NCBI GenBank assembly: GCA_018652595.1
Contig: JABIBU010000016.1
Coordinates: 26,911 to 90,910 of the forward strand
Length of the DNA stretch: 64,000 nucleotides
DNA from: Candidatus Magasanikiibacteriota bacterium
GTDB lineage: Bacteria; Patescibacteriota; Patescibacteriia; Magasanikbacterales; UBA922
Reading direction: 5' to 3'
In this document: positions 3,106 to 58,186 of the stretch, one piece after another
Position numbering within the stretch: position 1 is the stretch's first letter
Layout of the letters: each line of letters begins with the position of its first letter
Notes under the pieces: model-generated
Told to the model about the DNA's origin: nothing
The model's input: only the letters and a program-made list of their open reading frames with translations
Databases searched by the model: none
Made by a program: the position numbers and the translations under genes

Positions 3106-4587
3106 ATGCAAAAATTTCTAACTGAAAAATCAATCTTTTTTCAAAAACAAACTATGTTACTACTAGTTTTGTTTTTTTTACTCCGATTTGGTTCTTTTTT
3201 CTTGAATGGACATCTAATAATTCAAGGCATAATGGTTTTTGCACTACTAATGCTACTTGGAATTCTGTATTTCAAAAATCCTGATTGGGCATGGATGCTG
3301 GTATTGGGCGAAATATTTCTTGGTGGATCGGGTCACTATTTGGAATTCATTGGACTCTCAATTAGAACGCTATTCATTGGTTTCTTTTTATTCCTCTGGG
3401 CATCCGACAATATAGGCCGGAGTATACTGAAAAAAAGACTAAAAATTCACAAATATACAAACTGGATAATTTCACTATTATTTTTATCCTTATTTTTTGC
3501 TTTTGTAAATGGAATTTATCATGGCCACGAAGCTCATCGAGTGATTCAAGACTTTATGCCATTTACTTTTTTATTTCTTATTTTTCCATCTTATCACCTG
3601 TTCAAAGAAACAAAGATTCAAAACTATCTGGCTCGTCTAATGCTAGTCTTTATTATTGGGACAGCTATTTTTTCACTGTTTTCTTTTGGGCTTTTTTCAT
3701 TAGGAATTACCGAGATTCATGAGCCTTTTTACAATTGGTACAGAGACATCGATGTCGGAAAAATAACAGACATGGGAACTGGTTTTTTTAGAATAGTAGA
3801 GACAACCCATCTAATGATCGTACCTTTAATTTTAATAATATCATCACTATTAATGAGGAATGAGAAACACCATAAAATGTGGCGACTACTCCTAATACTA
3901 TCAATTATAATTCTAGTGCTAAATCTATCTCGTGGTTATTTCCTTGCTTTAGGGGTTGGGCTCCTAGTCTTGAAATACAAACACAAATGGAAACAGTGGA
4001 TAAAAGAATCGCTATACACAATACTGTTAGTTGTTGTAATTTTTTCTAGTCTACATTTTATGGCTAGCGCTGGACAGTCTTTTGGTTGGGAATTGTTCGG
4101 TGTTCGATTAAAAAGCTTTACTCAACCGCAAATTGAAGTTAGTACCAATACTCGAATGATGATCCTACCAAACATAGTACAAATGATTGGTCAAAATCCA
4201 GTCTTGGGTATAGGGCTTGGTGCAACTGTTACTTTTATAAATTACAACACATACGAAAGCCTTACAACACCACATTTTGACTGGGGGTATCTAGAAATGT
4301 GGGCAGAACTAGGCCTACCAGGCACTCTGATGCTTATATTTTTATATTGCTTTGTTGCGTATGCTCTAATAAAAAAAATAAAAGCCATCCCTGAGTGGCA
4401 TGACTTTGATGTTGGATTGCTAGCTGCTATTATATCCCTTCTAGTGATGAATATTACGATCGCAGCACTATTTCATGTCTTTGGAATTTTATTCCTGATC
4501 TTCGCACTCACTATTGCGACAAAATATACTGAAATTTTTGATAGAACCACAGCTTTGCTTTATCAGATGTTTAATCGAATGAAATAA
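3106..4587 (+). CDS. O-antigen ligase (Wzy_C) family polytopic membrane protein
   Basis: About 12 TM helices. Wzy_C-like loop motifs NLSRGYF, RMMILPNIVQMIGQNPVLGIGLGA and HFDWGYLEMWAELGLPG. Confidence 0.55.
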   Translation: MQKFLTEKSIFFQKQTMLLLVLFFLLRFGSFFLNGHLIIQGIMVFALLMLLGILYFKNPDWAWMLVLGEIFLGGSGHYLEFIGLSIRTLFIGFFLFLWASDNIGRSILKKRLKIHKYTNWIISLLFLSLFFAFVNGIYHGHEAHRVIQDFMPFTFLFLIFPSYHLFKETKIQNYLARLMLVFIIGTAIFSLFSFGLFSLGITEIHEPFYNWYRDIDVGKITDMGTGFFRIVETTHLMIVPLILIISSLLMRNEKHHKMWRLLLILSIIILVLNLSRGYFLALGVGLLVLKYKHKWKQWIKESLYTILLVVVIFSSLHFMASAGQSFGWELFGVRLKSFTQPQIEVSTNTRMMILPNIVQMIGQNPVLGIGLGATVTFINYNTYESLTTPHFDWGYLEMWAELGLPGTLMLIFLYCFVAYALIKKIKAIPEWHDFDVGLLAAIISLLVMNITIAALFHVFGILFLIFALTIATKYTEIFDRTTALLYQMFNRMK

Positions 4588-4604: not shown

Positions 4605-4640
4605 AATGCCGAGGATCCTCCAGGTCCTCGGCTTTTTTGT
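4605..4640 (+). terminator. rho-independent terminator
   Basis: gccgagga-tcctccagg-tcctcggc followed by TTTTTTG. Confidence 0.7.
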
Positions 4641-5035
4641 CCCTCCGTACCATAGAGGTCTTGCAGCGAAATAGCTACTACCTCACGGCCTGTCTCAACC
4701 CGTCGGTGGTTTTCCTCCTCAGGGTTTCCGCCTCTCCAGAAGCCTCTTGTCGTGCCCGCTCACGAGCCCGCTCCAGGGCTTCCAGCATAGGCTCGCCGGT
4801 GAAAGGAGATGTAACACTCTCGTGTTCGAACCCCTCTCCGTACCCATTGGCTCCGTGCCCTCTCTTGTAGCTCCAAAATGACCGCATCCCACACCTCTTC
4901 TCAGAGAAAAAGTTAAGGATGCATCTTCCCTCGTCTCACGACGAAGAGCTGATTACCACCTTGCCAGAAAACCTCCGGTAGGTTGGCGGGTTGAGACCAG
5001 CTACTCCATATCCCTTCTAGATGCAAACACTTGCC
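4641..5035. ncRNA. candidate structured ncRNA, class undetermined (about 58% GC island in 35% GC genome)
   Basis: 400-nt GC-rich island with no credible ORF (overlapping antisense ORFs of low-complexity R/A/S/P composition). 11-bp long-range complementarity 4692-4702 :: 4987-4997, extendable by a second helix 4705-4715 :: 4966-4976. Loose RNase-P-like strings (CAUAGG, GGUGAAAGG, CCAGAAAACCUCCGG) but no canonical P4. Confidence 0.4.
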
Positions 5036-5141
5036 ACACAGCAAGACAAAATAAACTTAAAAATTTACTTTGTCCTACTGTGAACAAAAATATAGTAACA
5101 AAAAAAGACTAAAAAGTCAATACCACCGCTGTGAATTATAA

Positions 5142-5843
5142 TTATTTTAATTTATGCTTTTCTAAAACAACCTTTTTTGCATCTTCGTACTCTCTCACTC
5201 GCTTTGAAATTCCAGGTAAACACTTGAAAGGAACCCCATAAGCAATTCTTGGCAACCAACCACTCATTGTACCGCCACCTAGTATTGTAAATAAATATTC
5301 ATCTACCCAAACGCCAGCCTTACCTTTCTCAGCCATACCCAACCAAAGATCCCAATCTTGAAACCTCTTCAAGCTCTCATCCCATTTCATCACATCTTTT
5401 CTACGGATTAAACTGGTGCTGTGAATATAATTATTTTTTTCCAATTCACTCTCATCAAATTTTCTAGCAGGAATTTTTTTTGTTATATATTTTATGATAG
5501 ATGTCTCATGATTGCAATATGCATAACTCGCTTCACTATTCTCTTGCAACTCACCACACATCTTTTCCAACATTTCAGACTCTCCAATCACATCCGCATC
5601 CCAAAATATCACATACTCACCTTTTGCTTCTTCCAACCCCCTGTTCCTGGCACTCGGCGCTCCCTTATTTTCTTGTCTGATTAATTTAACAGAATCATCT
5701 ACCTCAACTTTCTCATCACTACCATCATCTACTACTATGATTTCAATGTTTTTATAAATTTGTCTTTTTATTGAATCTAAAACCTTAGGCAACAAATGCA
5801 CTCGGTTATATATTGGAATAATTACACTGATTAATTCTTTCAT
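5142..5843 (-). CDS. glycosyltransferase family 2
   Basis: ISVIIPIYN...VVDDGSDE...WDADV GT-A signature. The ORF extends to 5936 but a start at M32 (MKELISVIIP) fits family N-termini. Confidence 0.7.
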   Translation of the reverse strand: MKELISVIIPIYNRVHLLPKVLDSIKRQIYKNIEIIVVDDGSDEKVEVDDSVKLIRQENKGAPSARNRGLEEAKGEYVIFWDADVIGESEMLEKMCGELQENSEASYAYCNHETSIIKYITKKIPARKFDESELEKNNYIHSTSLIRRKDVMKWDESLKRFQDWDLWLGMAEKGKAGVWVDEYLFTILGGGTMSGWLPRIAYGVPFKCLPGISKRVREYEDAKKVVLEKHKLK

Positions 5844-8737: not shown

Positions 8738-9127
8738 ATGAACAAAAAGGAGAAAACGAGTGAGCTGAACCTAACAACCAGGAGACGAAGCTACAGAAAA
8801 AGAACTATCAAATTCAGAGGGCGCTTCTATCGCCTGAATGGGATAGAAAGAGAATTTGATTGCGTTGTGGCTGGTGACAGACTCATCACCAAACTCACCT
8901 GCCCGAACCACCCTCAAAGGGCTTACGGCCAATGGGAACTGGAAGTGGCTGACGTGGTACCGTGCAAAGACTACGAAGATCTTGTGTACATGACATGTTT
9001 CCTGCGTTACAACTACAGCCCTCACGACCTCAGAAAAGTTGTATTCATCACCCTCTTTGCTTATCCAGACGGAAGAGGCTGGATTCACTCAATCTGCCAC
9101 ATGGAACGTGAGAAGAGGAGGAAATAA
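8738..9127 (+). CDS. hypothetical protein (GC-rich islet, basic N-terminus)
   Basis: 129-aa ORF with elevated GC (about 48%) relative to surroundings. Own consensus promoter at 8670-8698 and tandem terminators. No recognised domain. Confidence 0.5.
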   Translation: MNKKEKTSELNLTTRRRSYRKRTIKFRGRFYRLNGIEREFDCVVAGDRLITKLTCPNHPQRAYGQWELEVADVVPCKDYEDLVYMTCFLRYNYSPHDLRKVVFITLFAYPDGRGWIHSICHMEREKRRK

Positions 9128-17896: not shown

Positions 17897-18157
17897 CTAA
17901 TCACTTGTGGGCATTCCGTGGACCGTATCGGTGAGCACGACCTCATTTCCATCATCCGAAGCTGCAGGGAGTTCCGCCATGGTCTGAGCCTTGTCCCCAT
18001 CAGGACCCAGATCATCACCAGGAATCTCGACGGAGTTAACCCCCGACATGTCATGCATGACAGGAACATGAAGCTTTGTCCCGCAATTCCCGCAGAAGTT
18101 GTGAGAATAAGGATTCTCCTGACCACACTTGCTACACTTTTTCATTCTACCTTCCAT
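17897..18157 (-). CDS. zinc-ribbon domain protein
   Basis: CSKCGQEN…CGNCGTKL CxxC-x13-CxxC. Good RBS (AGGAGG, 7 nt). Acidic C-terminus. Sits in a GC-rich islet. Confidence 0.55.
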   Translation of the reverse strand: MEGRMKKCSKCGQENPYSHNFCGNCGTKLHVPVMHDMSGVNSVEIPGDDLGPDGDKAQTMAELPAASDDGNEVVLTDTVHGMPTSD

Positions 18158-18274: not shown

Positions 18275-18547
18275 TTAGGCATTATTACGGCGGGCCTGCA
18301 TGCAATCTCTGCAATATACTGGCTTGTCACCGGTAGGCTGGAAAGGAAGCTGTGAAATGTGAGTACCACATCCAGCACAATCCACATCTACTTCGTGCAT
18401 CTGGGCTTGTGGCTTGTCATTGCTTCTGCTCTCACGATAAGAGCGATTGCAGTCTGCACAATAAACAGGACGGTCACCAGAAGGTTGGAAAGGCAATTGT
18501 GAGATATGGGTATTGCACTTGGCGCAATTTATGTCCACATCATGCAT
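18275..18547 (-). CDS. tandem double zinc-ribbon protein
   Basis: Two about 40-aa repeats MH[DE]VD[IV][ND]CA[KG]C[NG]THISQLPFQP[ST]GD[RK]PVYC[AR]DC, each CxxC-x17-CxxC. GGAG RBS before M8; the ORF may extend to 18568. Confidence 0.55.
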   Translation of the reverse strand: MHDVDINCAKCNTHISQLPFQPSGDRPVYCADCNRSYRESRSNDKPQAQMHEVDVDCAGCGTHISQLPFQPTGDKPVYCRDCMQARRNNA

Positions 18548-18732
18548 TTGTCTGTCTCCAAAAGTCATATTTGATATATGTTTGTGTTCCCAATGTTTTG
18601 AGAATTTTTTGTTAAATTCGACCTTCCCGACGCTAAATCGGGATAAATTGGGAACTACTTATATTTGTTACCCATATATATTATAGGACATTTTTGACCA
18701 AAAGTCAACCCCGCACCAAAATTGGTGCTGGG

Positions 18733-39348: not shown

Positions 39349-39433
39349 AACACTTGACTTCTTTTATTTTTAATGGTAAAAATTAGTAAACAGCTCTTTG
39401 AACATTAACCTTTTTATAGAAGGAAAACATACG

Positions 39434-40168
39434 ATGGAAGAAACTAAGACCAATGACCCTCTCTCGTTTTTGATCAACACCTTCAACCTGATATATGGAG
39501 GACTCAGGTGGTTCTTTGCACCCGCAGTACCCTACCTATTCCCTCGTCGCAAGCTACCTCTCTGGATGACTCGCGGACGACATGTAGAGGTAATTACCGC
39601 AAACCAGATTACAGTGTTCAGAACCGCCATGGTAATCCCGATCTCTATGCTGGTCTACCATCACCACTACAAAACTGCATTTATTACCTTCGTTATTGCC
39701 GCTGTACTAGACTTTGTCGATGGCCTGGTCGCCACCGTACACCGACGACTTGGCTTCCAAGACAGCTCAGACCTGGGAAAATTCTTAGATGCATTCTGCG
39801 ACAAAATCTTCTACATCCTGACACTAAGCCTCGTTCTACTCTCTAGTAGATACGAAACAATGGGTCAATGGGCAATCGCCGCGCTGGTCATTGTCTCACT
39901 TCTAAGCATGGGCTGCGAAGTCTGGTTAGCGGTAGTCAGAGTCGAGGACTACTACTACAACAAGCTCAACGGCGCAAGCGGTGCCAGAGAGCTGAAAGCG
40001 AAAGGAGCTGGCAAGCTCAAGTTCGCACTCGAGATGGTTGGTGTCGGCGGCCTTTACCTATCGCTCCCCTCCTCCAATCATTGGAGCTTCTATGTGGGGT
40101 TTGCGTGCCTCATCTGCTCCTTCCCCTTCGCTGTGGCCAGCCTGAAGCAGAAACTTCAGCAACGCTAG
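39434..40168 (+). CDS. CDP-alcohol phosphatidyltransferase family protein (GC-rich, likely acquired)
   Basis: D-x2-DG-x2-AR…G-x3-D-x3-D motif (DFVDGLVATVHRRLGFQDSSDLGKFLDAFCD). About 50% GC versus about 35% background. RBS AGGAAA before M13. Confidence 0.7.
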   Translation: MEETKTNDPLSFLINTFNLIYGGLRWFFAPAVPYLFPRRKLPLWMTRGRHVEVITANQITVFRTAMVIPISMLVYHHHYKTAFITFVIAAVLDFVDGLVATVHRRLGFQDSSDLGKFLDAFCDKIFYILTLSLVLLSSRYETMGQWAIAALVIVSLLSMGCEVWLAVVRVEDYYYNKLNGASGARELKAKGAGKLKFALEMVGVGGLYLSLPSSNHWSFYVGFACLICSFPFAVASLKQKLQQR

Positions 40169-49154: not shown

Positions 49155-49253
49155 TCGCAGTAACTTGACAAAGTGAGGAAAATGTTGTTAAATAAAGATA
49201 AAGTTTTGAGAAAACCGACCCGGCTTTGGGTCACAATCGCATGGAGGTTTATC

Positions 49254-49736
49254 ATGCGCGTTTCACCGCTTGGTGGAGAAAACACTCGGTTCATCTTTCA
49301 GATGACCTTCTGTCCCCCTCTTGTGCTTGTGCTTATCATGGTTCTTGGCTCAATCTCCTCTTGCCATGAAGCCCAAGCTGCCAACCCCGCCATCGACAAG
49401 TGCTGGAACGAAATGATGGAGGAGAAACGGATCAAGCGCGTGCTGGAGGACGCGCCCGTGGTTCAGCAGACCGCCATCGACTTCGTCCAAGCCTTCGATG
49501 ACCTGTCTGACCAGAAGACGGAACTCGAAGGGCAGATCGAACTTCTCCATATCCAGATCAGCCAGCTTGAGGAGGATAAGCTGCTAGCTGAGCTGGATGA
49601 GCTAATGGCGGATTCGCACATCGACAGCGAAATCTGCAACAACGATCAAGACGATGACGGTGACGGCTGGATCGACTGCCACGACTGGAACTGCGACAGG
49701 GACCCCGCCTGCAGTACTACCGGAATCAGCTTCTAG
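49254..49736 (+). CDS. secreted acidic coiled-coil protein (GC-rich, hypothetical)
   Basis: GGAGG RBS 7 nt before ATG. Hydrophobic signal-like segment LVLVLIMVLGSISSC, coiled coil, Asp/Cys-rich C-terminus (DQDDDGDGWIDCHDWNCDRDPAC). About 55% GC. Confidence 0.5.
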   Translation: MRVSPLGGENTRFIFQMTFCPPLVLVLIMVLGSISSCHEAQAANPAIDKCWNEMMEEKRIKRVLEDAPVVQQTAIDFVQAFDDLSDQKTELEGQIELLHIQISQLEEDKLLAELDELMADSHIDSEICNNDQDDDGDGWIDCHDWNCDRDPACSTTGISF

Positions 49737-57133: not shown

Positions 57134-57565
57134 TTAAATTCCCAACTCAAACATATCTTCTGCAATATTCTCACTTTCTTTTTCACTCTTTGTCTTATAT
57201 GCTTCCCAATTTTTCTGATCCCAAAGCTCGAGACGGTTGTATAGCCCTGCCACGACAACTTGTTTCTTGAGACCAGCAAAACTGCGAAGATACTCTGGCA
57301 ACATTACTCTACCTTGCTTGTCCACACCCACATCCATGGCACCAGCCAGCATCAGACGTGCAAAAGCACGGGCTTTGGCTTGTGAAAATGGCAAAGTAGC
57401 CAATTTGTCAGCCAATTTTTTCCACTCAATCTTGGTATACAGGAACAGACAATTGTCCAAACCACGAGTGACTACTGCCCCCTTACTCAAATCAGCCCTA
57501 AATTTCTTTGGTACTGCAAGTCGCCCCTTCTCGTCTAAATTGTGGCTATATTCACCTATGAACAC
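57134..57565 (-). CDS. mraZ: transcriptional regulator MraZ
   Basis: Duplicated MraZ domain (DEKGRLAVP… and DKQGRVMLP…). Confidence 0.9.
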   Translation of the reverse strand: MFIGEYSHNLDEKGRLAVPKKFRADLSKGAVVTRGLDNCLFLYTKIEWKKLADKLATLPFSQAKARAFARLMLAGAMDVGVDKQGRVMLPEYLRSFAGLKKQVVVAGLYNRLELWDQKNWEAYKTKSEKESENIAEDMFELGI

Positions 57566-57782: not shown

Positions 57783-58186
57783 TAAGTTAAATAAGTCAAG
57801 ATCCTGTGTGTATATAATAATTTGTCTATACACAGGGCCTTGGGTGGCCAGACGACGTGCACCCAGTACGGGCAGGCAGTAAAAAATGGTTCACAATCGC
57901 GAAAATGCGAGGAAAAACCAGATCAATCATGATCCTGGAGAACCATCTAATCTGCAGCCACGCAGGGCAGTTCACCAGAACCGTCGACCAGCAATCTGGC
58001 CACCCAAGCCCCACTCAATTCCGCCCTTTTTAGGAGCAAGTAGCAGGCGTGCACCTCCCAAGCCATCTCGGCAATCCATGGGAACCCTTTCGCACAACAA
58101 AAGCCTGCTACTTGCTCCATGAAACTCTTTGACTATTTAAGTAATTAAAGAGTAATAAAAAACCAGCGATAACGCTGGTTTTTTAA
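57783..58186 (+). ncRNA. candidate structured ncRNA with consensus promoter and terminator, class undetermined
   Basis: Perfect TTGACA-17-TATAAT at 57747-57775; intrinsic terminator at 58162-58184. 12-bp 5' hairpin (57803-57837). Long-range helices 57835-57852 :: 57995-58012 (17 bp, one mismatch) and 58033-58048 :: 58103-58118 (16 bp perfect). The only ORFs are Pro/Arg-rich low-complexity. Confidence 0.55.
58155..58186. terminator. bidirectional terminator (ncRNA candidate / beta-CASP RNase)
   Basis: aaaaa-accagcg-ataa-cgctggt-tttttaatt. Confidence 0.7.

Follow-up and report, generated by a model that had tools for sequence, protein, structure and literature searches.

The subject of this analysis is a GC-rich island (positions 4641–5035) in a 64,000-nucleotide stretch of a Candidatus Magasanikiibacteriota genome (contig JABIBU010000016.1; hereafter the window), which takes up most of the 554-nt gap between two convergent genes, one for an O-antigen-ligase-like Wzy_C protein and the other for a family-2 glycosyltransferase (GT2). 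With a probability that we put at roughly 0.7, the island is a minus-strand mRNA in which a divergent SAM-I-type riboswitch drives an orphan, lineage-specific micro-protein, a reading in which the ligand, the transcription and the direction of control are what we infer. The reading is carried by the architecture of the element, its similarity to riboswitch models for S-adenosylmethionine (SAM), covariation within it and the conservation of its open reading frame (ORF) at the protein level. Taken together, the island would be a short monocistronic message, inserted between the Wzy_C and GT2 genes, with a 5′ untranslated region (UTR) that would carry the putative SAM-I-clan aptamer at 4920–5025. 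Binding of SAM to the aptamer would then control translation of a 69-codon ORF by way of a competition between the closing helix of the aptamer, P1, and the base of a hairpin that sequesters both the Shine–Dalgarno sequence (SD) and the start codon, the two having 3 nt in common.

Read from right to left along the minus strand, the order of elements is promoter, leader hairpin, aptamer, SD/AUG hairpin, ORF, 3′ UTR and the terminator hairpin of the Wzy gene. The aptamer (4920..5025, minus strand, 106 nt), as delineated by covariance-model scans (cmscan) of orthologous loci, by alignment and by folding, is a four-way junction. P1 pairs 5025–5020 with 4925–4920, P2a pairs 5014–5012 with 4990–4988, P2b pairs 5006–5004 with 4995–4993 and P3 pairs 4987–4975 with 4967–4955, while P4, which is capped by a GUGA loop, pairs 4946–4940 with 4935–4929; a putative pseudoknot joins L2 (5002–4996) to J3/4 (4953–4947). 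When P1–P4 and the pseudoknot are drawn by hand on the alignment of the three available copies, that of the window and those of the orthologous loci L025 and L094, 98% of the cells are paired, as against 35–50% when the 3′ partners are slid by 1–3 columns. P2b is GAG/CUC in the window, UGG/CUA in L025 and GGG/CCC in L094, and has two compensatory pairs. The pseudoknot, AGCUGGU with A(CU/UC)AGCU, can form 7 pairs in all three copies, which are kept through the swap of CU to UC; P4 likewise stays paired where U·G replaces U-A, and its loop remains of the GNRA type as GUGA gives way to GUAA. Moreover, RNAalifold, blind to Rfam, recovers the P1–P4 four-way junction from the three sequences, and the L025 and L094 aptamers, each folded in isolation, have precisely this junction as their minimum-free-energy (MFE) structure.

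The likeness to the SAM-I riboswitch (S-box, RF00162, clan CL00012) extends from the overall fold to the core. In common with SAM-I are the four-way junction with P4 inside P1, the AGA of J1/2, the AU/UA steps of P1, the P3 motif GCCAACC...AAGGUGG with its bulged A, the AA at the start of J3/4, a candidate pseudoknot between L2 and J3/4 and a location in the 5′ UTR directly upstream of a start codon; SAM-I is also the best Rfam match for two of the three copies. By cmscan, the L025 and L094 copies have the positions that are highly conserved in SAM-I (PMC3764141), namely A6, U7, A87 and U88 in P1, G11 and A12 in J1/2, C44, A45, C47, G56, U57 and G58 in P3 and A61 in J3/4, and the window is identical at all of them. 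Of the differences within the core, G43–C59 is flipped to C–G, with the pair kept, and U4 is replaced. In SAM-I, P2 contains a kink-turn (tandem G·A pairs 19/36 and 20/35 and a 3-nt bulge), whereas here a 5-nt/2-nt internal loop takes its place, with 4–5 nt over 2 nt across the three copies; at the kink-turn site the cmscan alignments of L025 and L094 contain a 4-nt deletion at U34–G35 and no GA on the 5′ strand. Again unlike SAM-I, the pseudoknot is 7 bp long and in a shifted register, the regulated gene is an orphan ORF of 58–69 residues rather than a gene for synthesis or transport of methionine, cysteine or SAM, and the host is a bacterium of the candidate phyla radiation (CPR).

With SAM-I/IV (RF01725), which is the best match of the window copy, the element has in common the consensus of the SAM-binding core, gcCAACC...AaGGUGg, as well as a P2 that is simple and free of a kink-turn. 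The topology is different, however, since the P4 of SAM-I/IV lies 3′ of P1, whereas here P1 encloses P4; in the SAM-I/IV alignment of the window, at 19.6 bits against a threshold of 41.1, P1 does not pair and the true P4 falls outside the P1 of the model. To judge from the sequence, the element is a SAM-I-type aptamer without the kink-turn and with a longer, re-registered pseudoknot, for which SAM is the presumptive ligand. It is classed as a variant, rather than a regular member, of SAM-I because the kink-turn is missing and the scores lie below the curated threshold.

The Rfam SAM model (RF00162) matches L025 with 33.7 bits (E 1.1e-5) and L094 with 29.1 bits (E 4.9e-4). The default Rfam scan of the window is empty because the matches all lie below the gathering scores: no Rfam family is found in the window at its gathering score, and a scan of the whole window with E up to 0.05 returns just noise from miRNA and sRNA models. 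L094 itself was located through a scan of metagenomes for the P3 core, using the pattern CCGCCAACC-N8-25-AAGGTGGYAA. Among the matches listed for this motif, most look by eye like ordinary SAM-I-clan leaders from unrelated organisms. A covariance model built from the three copies gives 20–32 bits, over its full length, on several of the motif-scan sequences, scores which are to be taken as supportive only, since the sequences had been pre-selected for the motif.

The 69-codon ORF (4678..4887, minus strand; protein P0124), as defined by its aligned start, BLASTP and tblastx, is the other main component of the island. A preliminary description of this DNA had found no credible ORF here, a statement which does not hold, since minus-strand 4678–4887 has an SD, a start that aligns in two orthologous loci and frame-specific conservation of its protein. 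The ATG at 4887 aligns with the ORF starts in both L025 (69 codons) and L094 (58 codons). P0124 (peptide MRSFWSYKRGHGANGYGEGFEHESVTSPFTGEPM...) contains the motif NG[YF]G.GFE...P..GE.M, followed by an Arg/Glu-rich helix, and the pattern common to the window and L094 proteins is NG[YF]G.GFE....P..GE.M...E.AR.R. These two proteins are 42% identical over 26 amino acids (BLASTP, E 4e-6), and the L025 and L094 proteins match with E 3e-5; tblastx between the window and L094 gives E 6.6e-7 in the frames of the ORF only, with a best blastn E of 0.56. Across 34 aligned codons of the window and L094, 15 residues are identical, and 8 of these 15 are encoded by different codons. Such a pattern reads as the signature of selection on the protein and not on the sequence of the RNA.

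Beyond these loci the protein is an orphan. Its annotation by JGI is ‘hypothetical protein’, and word-indexed searches across 5.8 billion proteins gave back none but the loci's own. Pfam, PHROGs and PADLOC contain no match to the small ORFs, and what NCBIfam (E 0.093) and PDB sequences (E at least 1) offer is sub-threshold noise. When 1.84 billion representatives were searched in full with HMMER, the small-protein profile gained only giant repeat adhesins from outside the window (P0126, P0127 and P0128, of the type IX secretion system type, 1443–2919 amino acids), at E 1.6e-35. These were rejected as homologues; the match is at the level of a P.NG..V motif of ~20 residues, which scores through the sum of as many as 20 repeats, and serves as a caution on scores that are summed in this way.

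Between the aptamer and the ORF, straight after P1, all three copies can form a hairpin (4884..4922, minus strand; from RNAalifold and individual folds), GCAUCC...GGAUGC with an inner stem of CUUUUUCUC / GAGAAGAGG, which pairs both the SD (4902–4894) and the AUG (4887–4885). The conserved minus-strand block ends in this region, with a GC-rich segment, GAGAAGAGG and the ATG. The hairpin is predicted in every fold, constrained or unconstrained, with an unpaired probability of about 0 for SD and AUG. Its 5′ base and the 3′ strand of P1 overlap by 3 nt (GCA); when the aptamer is enforced the lower stem of the hairpin is reduced from 6–7 bp to 3–4 bp, and blocking the 5′ strand of P1 lets the hairpin form in full. 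No U-run follows it in L025 or L094, such that it is not a terminator, and, as far as these predicted folds go, translational control is the likely mode of regulation. By analogy with other SAM-I switches, expression would be OFF with SAM, although the geometry would fit an ON switch equally well or better.

The position of the element would also fit a different output, namely that of an antisense-acting riboswitch, in which SAM-dependent read-through into the Wzy gene would yield an antisense RNA that lowers Wzy expression, and the small ORF would be incidental. Such an output is compatible with the riboswitch–micro-protein reading, and the geometry allows it, in that the aptamer transcript heads towards the 3′ end of a convergent Wzy gene, and read-through is conceivable across a shared hairpin that has no good U-tail on the minus strand. 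There is also precedent, both in a survey of 292 candidate cases (PMC9943018) and in the S-box reported downstream of the Clostridium acetobutylicum ubiG–mccBA operon (PMC2566862), where a SAM-I-type aptamer is similarly downstream of, and convergent to, a protein gene. The Clostridium system as described there, however, works by transcriptional antitermination with an antisense RNA as its output, whereas here the conserved element 3′ of the aptamer is the SD/AUG hairpin and neither a terminator nor an antiterminator, with no U-run in L025 or L094; the ORF is conserved at the protein level; and a stable 10-bp GC hairpin separates the ORF from Wzy at each of the three loci. As the main role, an antisense output is on balance distinctly improbable.

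Several points weigh against a SAM-I-type riboswitch driving a micro-protein. The kink-turn of P2, including G19, A20, G35 and A36, is a highly conserved element of SAM-I that is absent here, and the register of the pseudoknot is different from the G27,G28–C65,C66 of SAM-I and is seen in 3 sequences. All three copies fall below the RF00162 gathering score of 44.4 bits, and the best match of the window copy, to SAM-I/IV with an E of 0.4–2.5, is not significant alone. The window copy also contains an A·C mismatch in P3, and its MFE fold favours the pseudoknot helix over P2. There are only three distinct sequences, and 104 of 500 shuffles reach the observed covariation values; the covariation is therefore suggestive and not proof, three sequences making for a weak shuffle control. 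As to the output, the SD is paired in all predicted states, with no clear ON/OFF pair of structures. The ORF family has three members only, the AlphaFold model of P0124 is poor (pLDDT 67, with a long C-terminal helix of low confidence) and, in departure from the usual SAM-I regulon, the downstream ORF has no link to methionine or SAM metabolism.

Alternatively, the window copy might be the decaying, no longer functional relic of an inserted foreign cassette, with a degenerating aptamer, a truncated or chimeric ORF and an 11-bp repeat left as a duplication scar. The 19.6 bits of the window aptamer are far under the scores of its orthologues, its P3 has an extra G·U besides the mismatch, its ORF lacks some 26 N-terminal residues that are found in L025 and ends in a unique 30-residue extension with a coding sequence complementary to the aptamer core, and the site is a hot spot at which relatives have different inserts or none. 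Nevertheless, the promoter, leader hairpin, P1, P4, core positions, SD and AUG are all intact, with 92% identity to L025, the ORF is open and keeps its conserved motif, and the CU-to-UC change in the pseudoknot of the window retains all 7 pairs. Moreover, at least 23 contigs, which come from different samples, contain the very same sequence, and it is thus stably maintained. Decay is an unlikely account of the window copy. The preliminary description had named a pseudogenised fragment of a GC-rich foreign gene as an outcome that would count against its own reading, and this is borne out in part; the frame-consistent protein conservation that it associated with such a fragment is indeed present, but the gene is an orphan small gene and not a pseudogenised foreign one.

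What that description had favoured was a structured non-coding RNA of about 300–400 nt on the plus strand, closed by an 11-bp helix between 4692–4702 and 4987–4997 and possibly related to RNase P. Several of its observations stand. The two arms of the helix are exact complements, and when the island was shuffled 2000 times with its dinucleotides preserved, an inverted repeat of at least 11 bp appeared in 0.95% of cases, making the helix unlikely by chance (P about 0.01). Both strands of the island also fold slightly better than their shuffles (z −2.3 for the plus and −3.0 for the minus strand). A second helix is there as complementarity between 4696–4714 and 4967–4985, but is imperfect (79% over 19 nt). 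The strings thought to resemble conserved regions of RNase P and tRNA are also there, slightly displaced (CATAGG at 4786, GGTGAAAGG at 4798, CCAGAAAACCTCCGG at 4964 and GTTCGAAC at 4824); the former, however, are antisense to codons of the ORF and to P3 of the aptamer, and the ‘tRNA-like’ GTTCGAAC reads, in codons, GGG-TTC-GAA-CAC and belongs to the conserved GFE motif. A scan for tRNA and tmRNA gives no match, and no model of RNase P, tmRNA, 6S RNA, introns or another large RNA matches even at permissive E-values (for RNase P up to 10 on both strands). The 240 nt to the left of 4884 have no nucleotide similarity to the orthologous loci, where only the protein frame is similar, the helix is missing in L094 and the stronger fold is that of the minus strand. 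A large plus-strand RNA, let alone an RNase P, is contradicted by these results and is barely credible. The left 210 nt of the island are a protein-coding ORF and do not belong to a ~300-nt RNA domain, the proposed closing helix of which is absent from L094; what survives of the structured RNA is a riboswitch aptamer of ~106 nt, on the minus strand and in the right quarter of the island only (4920–5025). It was two checks proposed in the same description, a cmscan for riboswitches and a comparison of syntenic regions, that, once run, exposed the aptamer.

The left arm of the 11-bp inverted repeat (4692..4702) lies in the ...DGLRQ codons at the 3′ end of the ORF, a stretch that belongs to the C-terminal extension found only in the ORF of the window. 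The right arm, which is the 5′ one in the minus-strand RNA, takes in the last part of L2, both 3′ strands of P2 (P2b and P2a) and the base with which P3 begins. Complementarity between the aptamer and its downstream sequence as strong as that observed appears in 0.3% of shuffles for the window, in 4% for L025 (marginal) and in 54% for L094, where it is absent. Since L094 has the same architecture but lacks the helix, the helix is not the conserved closure of a domain; it is specific to the window and may be a scar left when part of the aptamer was duplicated in inverted orientation, or else represent local anti-aptamer pairing. The repeat was also considered as part of a retron-like element and rejected as such, there being no reverse transcriptase gene nearby and the arms lying inside the aptamer and the ORF. 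Also rejected were a repeat family, a template–variable repeat pair of a diversity-generating retroelement and a miniature inverted-repeat transposable element; the island has no similarity to the other GC-rich islands of the window.

Upstream of the aptamer, the minus strand contains a predicted sigma-70-like promoter (5092..5120), found by promoter scan, with TTGACT, a 17-nt spacer and TG-n-TACTAT (9 of 12 matches plus the TG). This block is identical in L025 and has one base different in L094; transcription from it would start, as predicted, near 5085. An AT-rich leader hairpin of ~21 bp (5037..5082, minus strand) lies between the promoter and the aptamer. It surfaced as a perfect long hairpin in a spurious alignment to an Rfam miRNA model, and is kept in L025 and L094 (arms 142–162 / 166–186 in the latter), with one compensatory change, C-G to U-A, from GGACAAAG...UUUUGUCUU in the window to GGAUAAAG...UUUUAUCUU in L094. 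It is probably not the terminator of the GT2 gene, since it has no U-tail. At the other end of the message, the 3′ UTR (4633..4677, minus strand) runs from the stop codon to the terminator hairpin and contains no separate feature.

That hairpin (4608–4632), with a GC-rich, 10-bp stem, is common to both convergent transcripts. On the plus strand it is followed by a T-run, and resembles a canonical intrinsic terminator for the Wzy gene (3106–4587, plus strand); on the minus strand a weaker tail, AUUGUCAUUUAU, follows. It is kept at 90–96% in L005, L027, L030 and L094. The island begins right after it, as the preliminary description had recognised, along with the overlapping ORFs that are present on both strands. 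The GT2 gene (5142–5843, minus strand), which like the Wzy_C gene was assigned by family search, lies on the other side of the gap, such that the neighbours of the small ORF are Wzy_C and glycosyltransferases. The high GC content is equally real, at 55.4% (slightly below the 58% or so first estimated) compared with 36.4% for the window and 34–37% for the 500-nt flanks, and just 0.3% of the 395-nt stretches of the window match it. This composition arises because the aptamer segment has a GC content of 53% and the ORF, at 60% GC overall, has a GC content at third codon positions (GC3) of 0.64, as against 0.30–0.34 in the neighbouring genes.

The Wzy protein of the window is encoded on at least 23 contigs, among them one of assembly GCA_018657365.1 (contig JABHXG010000002.1), and the three loci fetched for it are identical to the window across the overlapping part of the island region. 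Homologues carry the labels Candidatus Magasanikbacteria or Patescibacteria. Among the fetched relatives the gene order flippase–GT4–GT2–[gap]–Wzy–fmt is kept and the gap itself is variable. In those with a Wzy of 65–77% identity (L153, L156, L158 and L160) it is 0–42 nt long (as in L153:3982–3993) or holds other genes, and the island of the window is partly shared only with L025/L026 (Wzy 89%) and L094/L151. Relative to L025, window positions 4884–5122 are 92% identical and 4640–4884 have no nucleotide match. The aptamer is absent from 10 further syntenic Magasanikbacteria loci and from the rest of the window, and viral contigs contain no relative of it or of either of the ORFs found in the gap, the second of which is described below. 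The gap is therefore a hot spot for changing content and, by comparison of these sequences, the island appears to be an insertion limited to a small subclade and not a conserved housekeeping RNA gene, because the gap varies among relatives and only these loci share part of the island.

Other contents of the gap were seen in passing. In L004 (L004:4030–4345) there are repeats of the CPR style, among them GTCATTGCGAG... and a motif resembling CCGCCYAAGGCGGA that occurs three times. At the same site another GC-rich ORF of 66–84 codons is found in L005:11934–12371, L030:5483–5895, L155:3983–4423 and L027:5483–5851, with 75–84 codons in the first three and a variant in L027 that has a frameshift at a G8 homopolymer. 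This ORF (P0121/P0122; motif MGNPSPRREAE...AVDALTGEVL...GEPMPKMV) has its own SD and no riboswitch, and a GC3 of 0.68–0.74 in genomes of 35% GC; substitutions that favour the third codon position (15/6/5, 18/7/4 and 14/6/1) indicate that it is coding. Homology between it and the riboswitch-linked ORFs was considered and rejected, with an hhalign probability of 0.5% and a shared patch of only 13 nt, or GEPM.

Elsewhere in the window, several other GC-rich islands coincide with ORFs of raised GC3 (0.53–0.68, and 0.42 for 18275–18568). These lie at 8738–9127 (plus strand), 17897–18157 and 18275–18568 (both minus strand), 39398–40168 (plus strand) and 49173–49736 (plus strand), and their products are, respectively, a 129-residue ORF, two CxxC zinc-ribbon-like small ORFs, a 256-residue ORF and a 187-residue ORF. 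This suggests that a GC-rich island in this genome is often the site of an atypical small protein gene and not of an RNA. A further region, 57818–58148, upstream of an mraZ-like gene (57134–57565, minus strand), is GC-rich (up to 58%) and has several palindromes; it contains no convincing ORF and no Rfam match at E up to 0.05, and is a candidate for an unexplained structured RNA.

For the annotation of such genomes it follows that GC-rich islands, in this AT-rich genome, are an unreliable sign of non-coding RNA, several of those in the window being small lineage-specific protein genes with foreign-looking codon usage. Standard annotation, for its part, leaves a 550-nt ‘empty’ gap where we place the riboswitch, because the copy falls below the curated Rfam threshold. 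Riboswitches in Patescibacteria (CPR) also look poorly documented, since a full-text search of a limited library returned nothing that pairs ‘SAM riboswitch’ with ‘Patescibacteria’; the papers found there on riboswitches and the candidate phyla radiation have no report of a SAM riboswitch in their titles or abstracts, and one text covers synthetic riboswitches only, as tools.

A bolder picture can be drawn, which in its entirety we consider rather unlikely. The kink-turn-less SAM-I variant of these few Magasanikbacteria might be an ON switch, in which a ligand-stabilised P1 would strip 3 bp off the SD/AUG hairpin, releasing a fast-evolving, GC-rich micro-protein that would link the supply of SAM, thought to be scavenged by these symbionts, to envelope polysaccharide genes. 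More generally, GC-rich micro-gene cassettes (GC3 0.6–0.74 in a genome of 0.3), possibly with a function in host interaction, would be swapped in and out of the Wzy/GT2 gap. In the more restricted reading of a divergent SAM-I-type riboswitch upstream of an orphan ORF, the implications depend on whether SAM is bound. If it is, the SAM-I fold would tolerate the loss of its kink-turn when the pseudoknot is lengthened, and organisms for which inducible genetic tools are sought (PMC11665869) would have in it a natural ligand-responsive element. A further pointer would be to a micro-protein in these bacteria whose synthesis follows the level of SAM.

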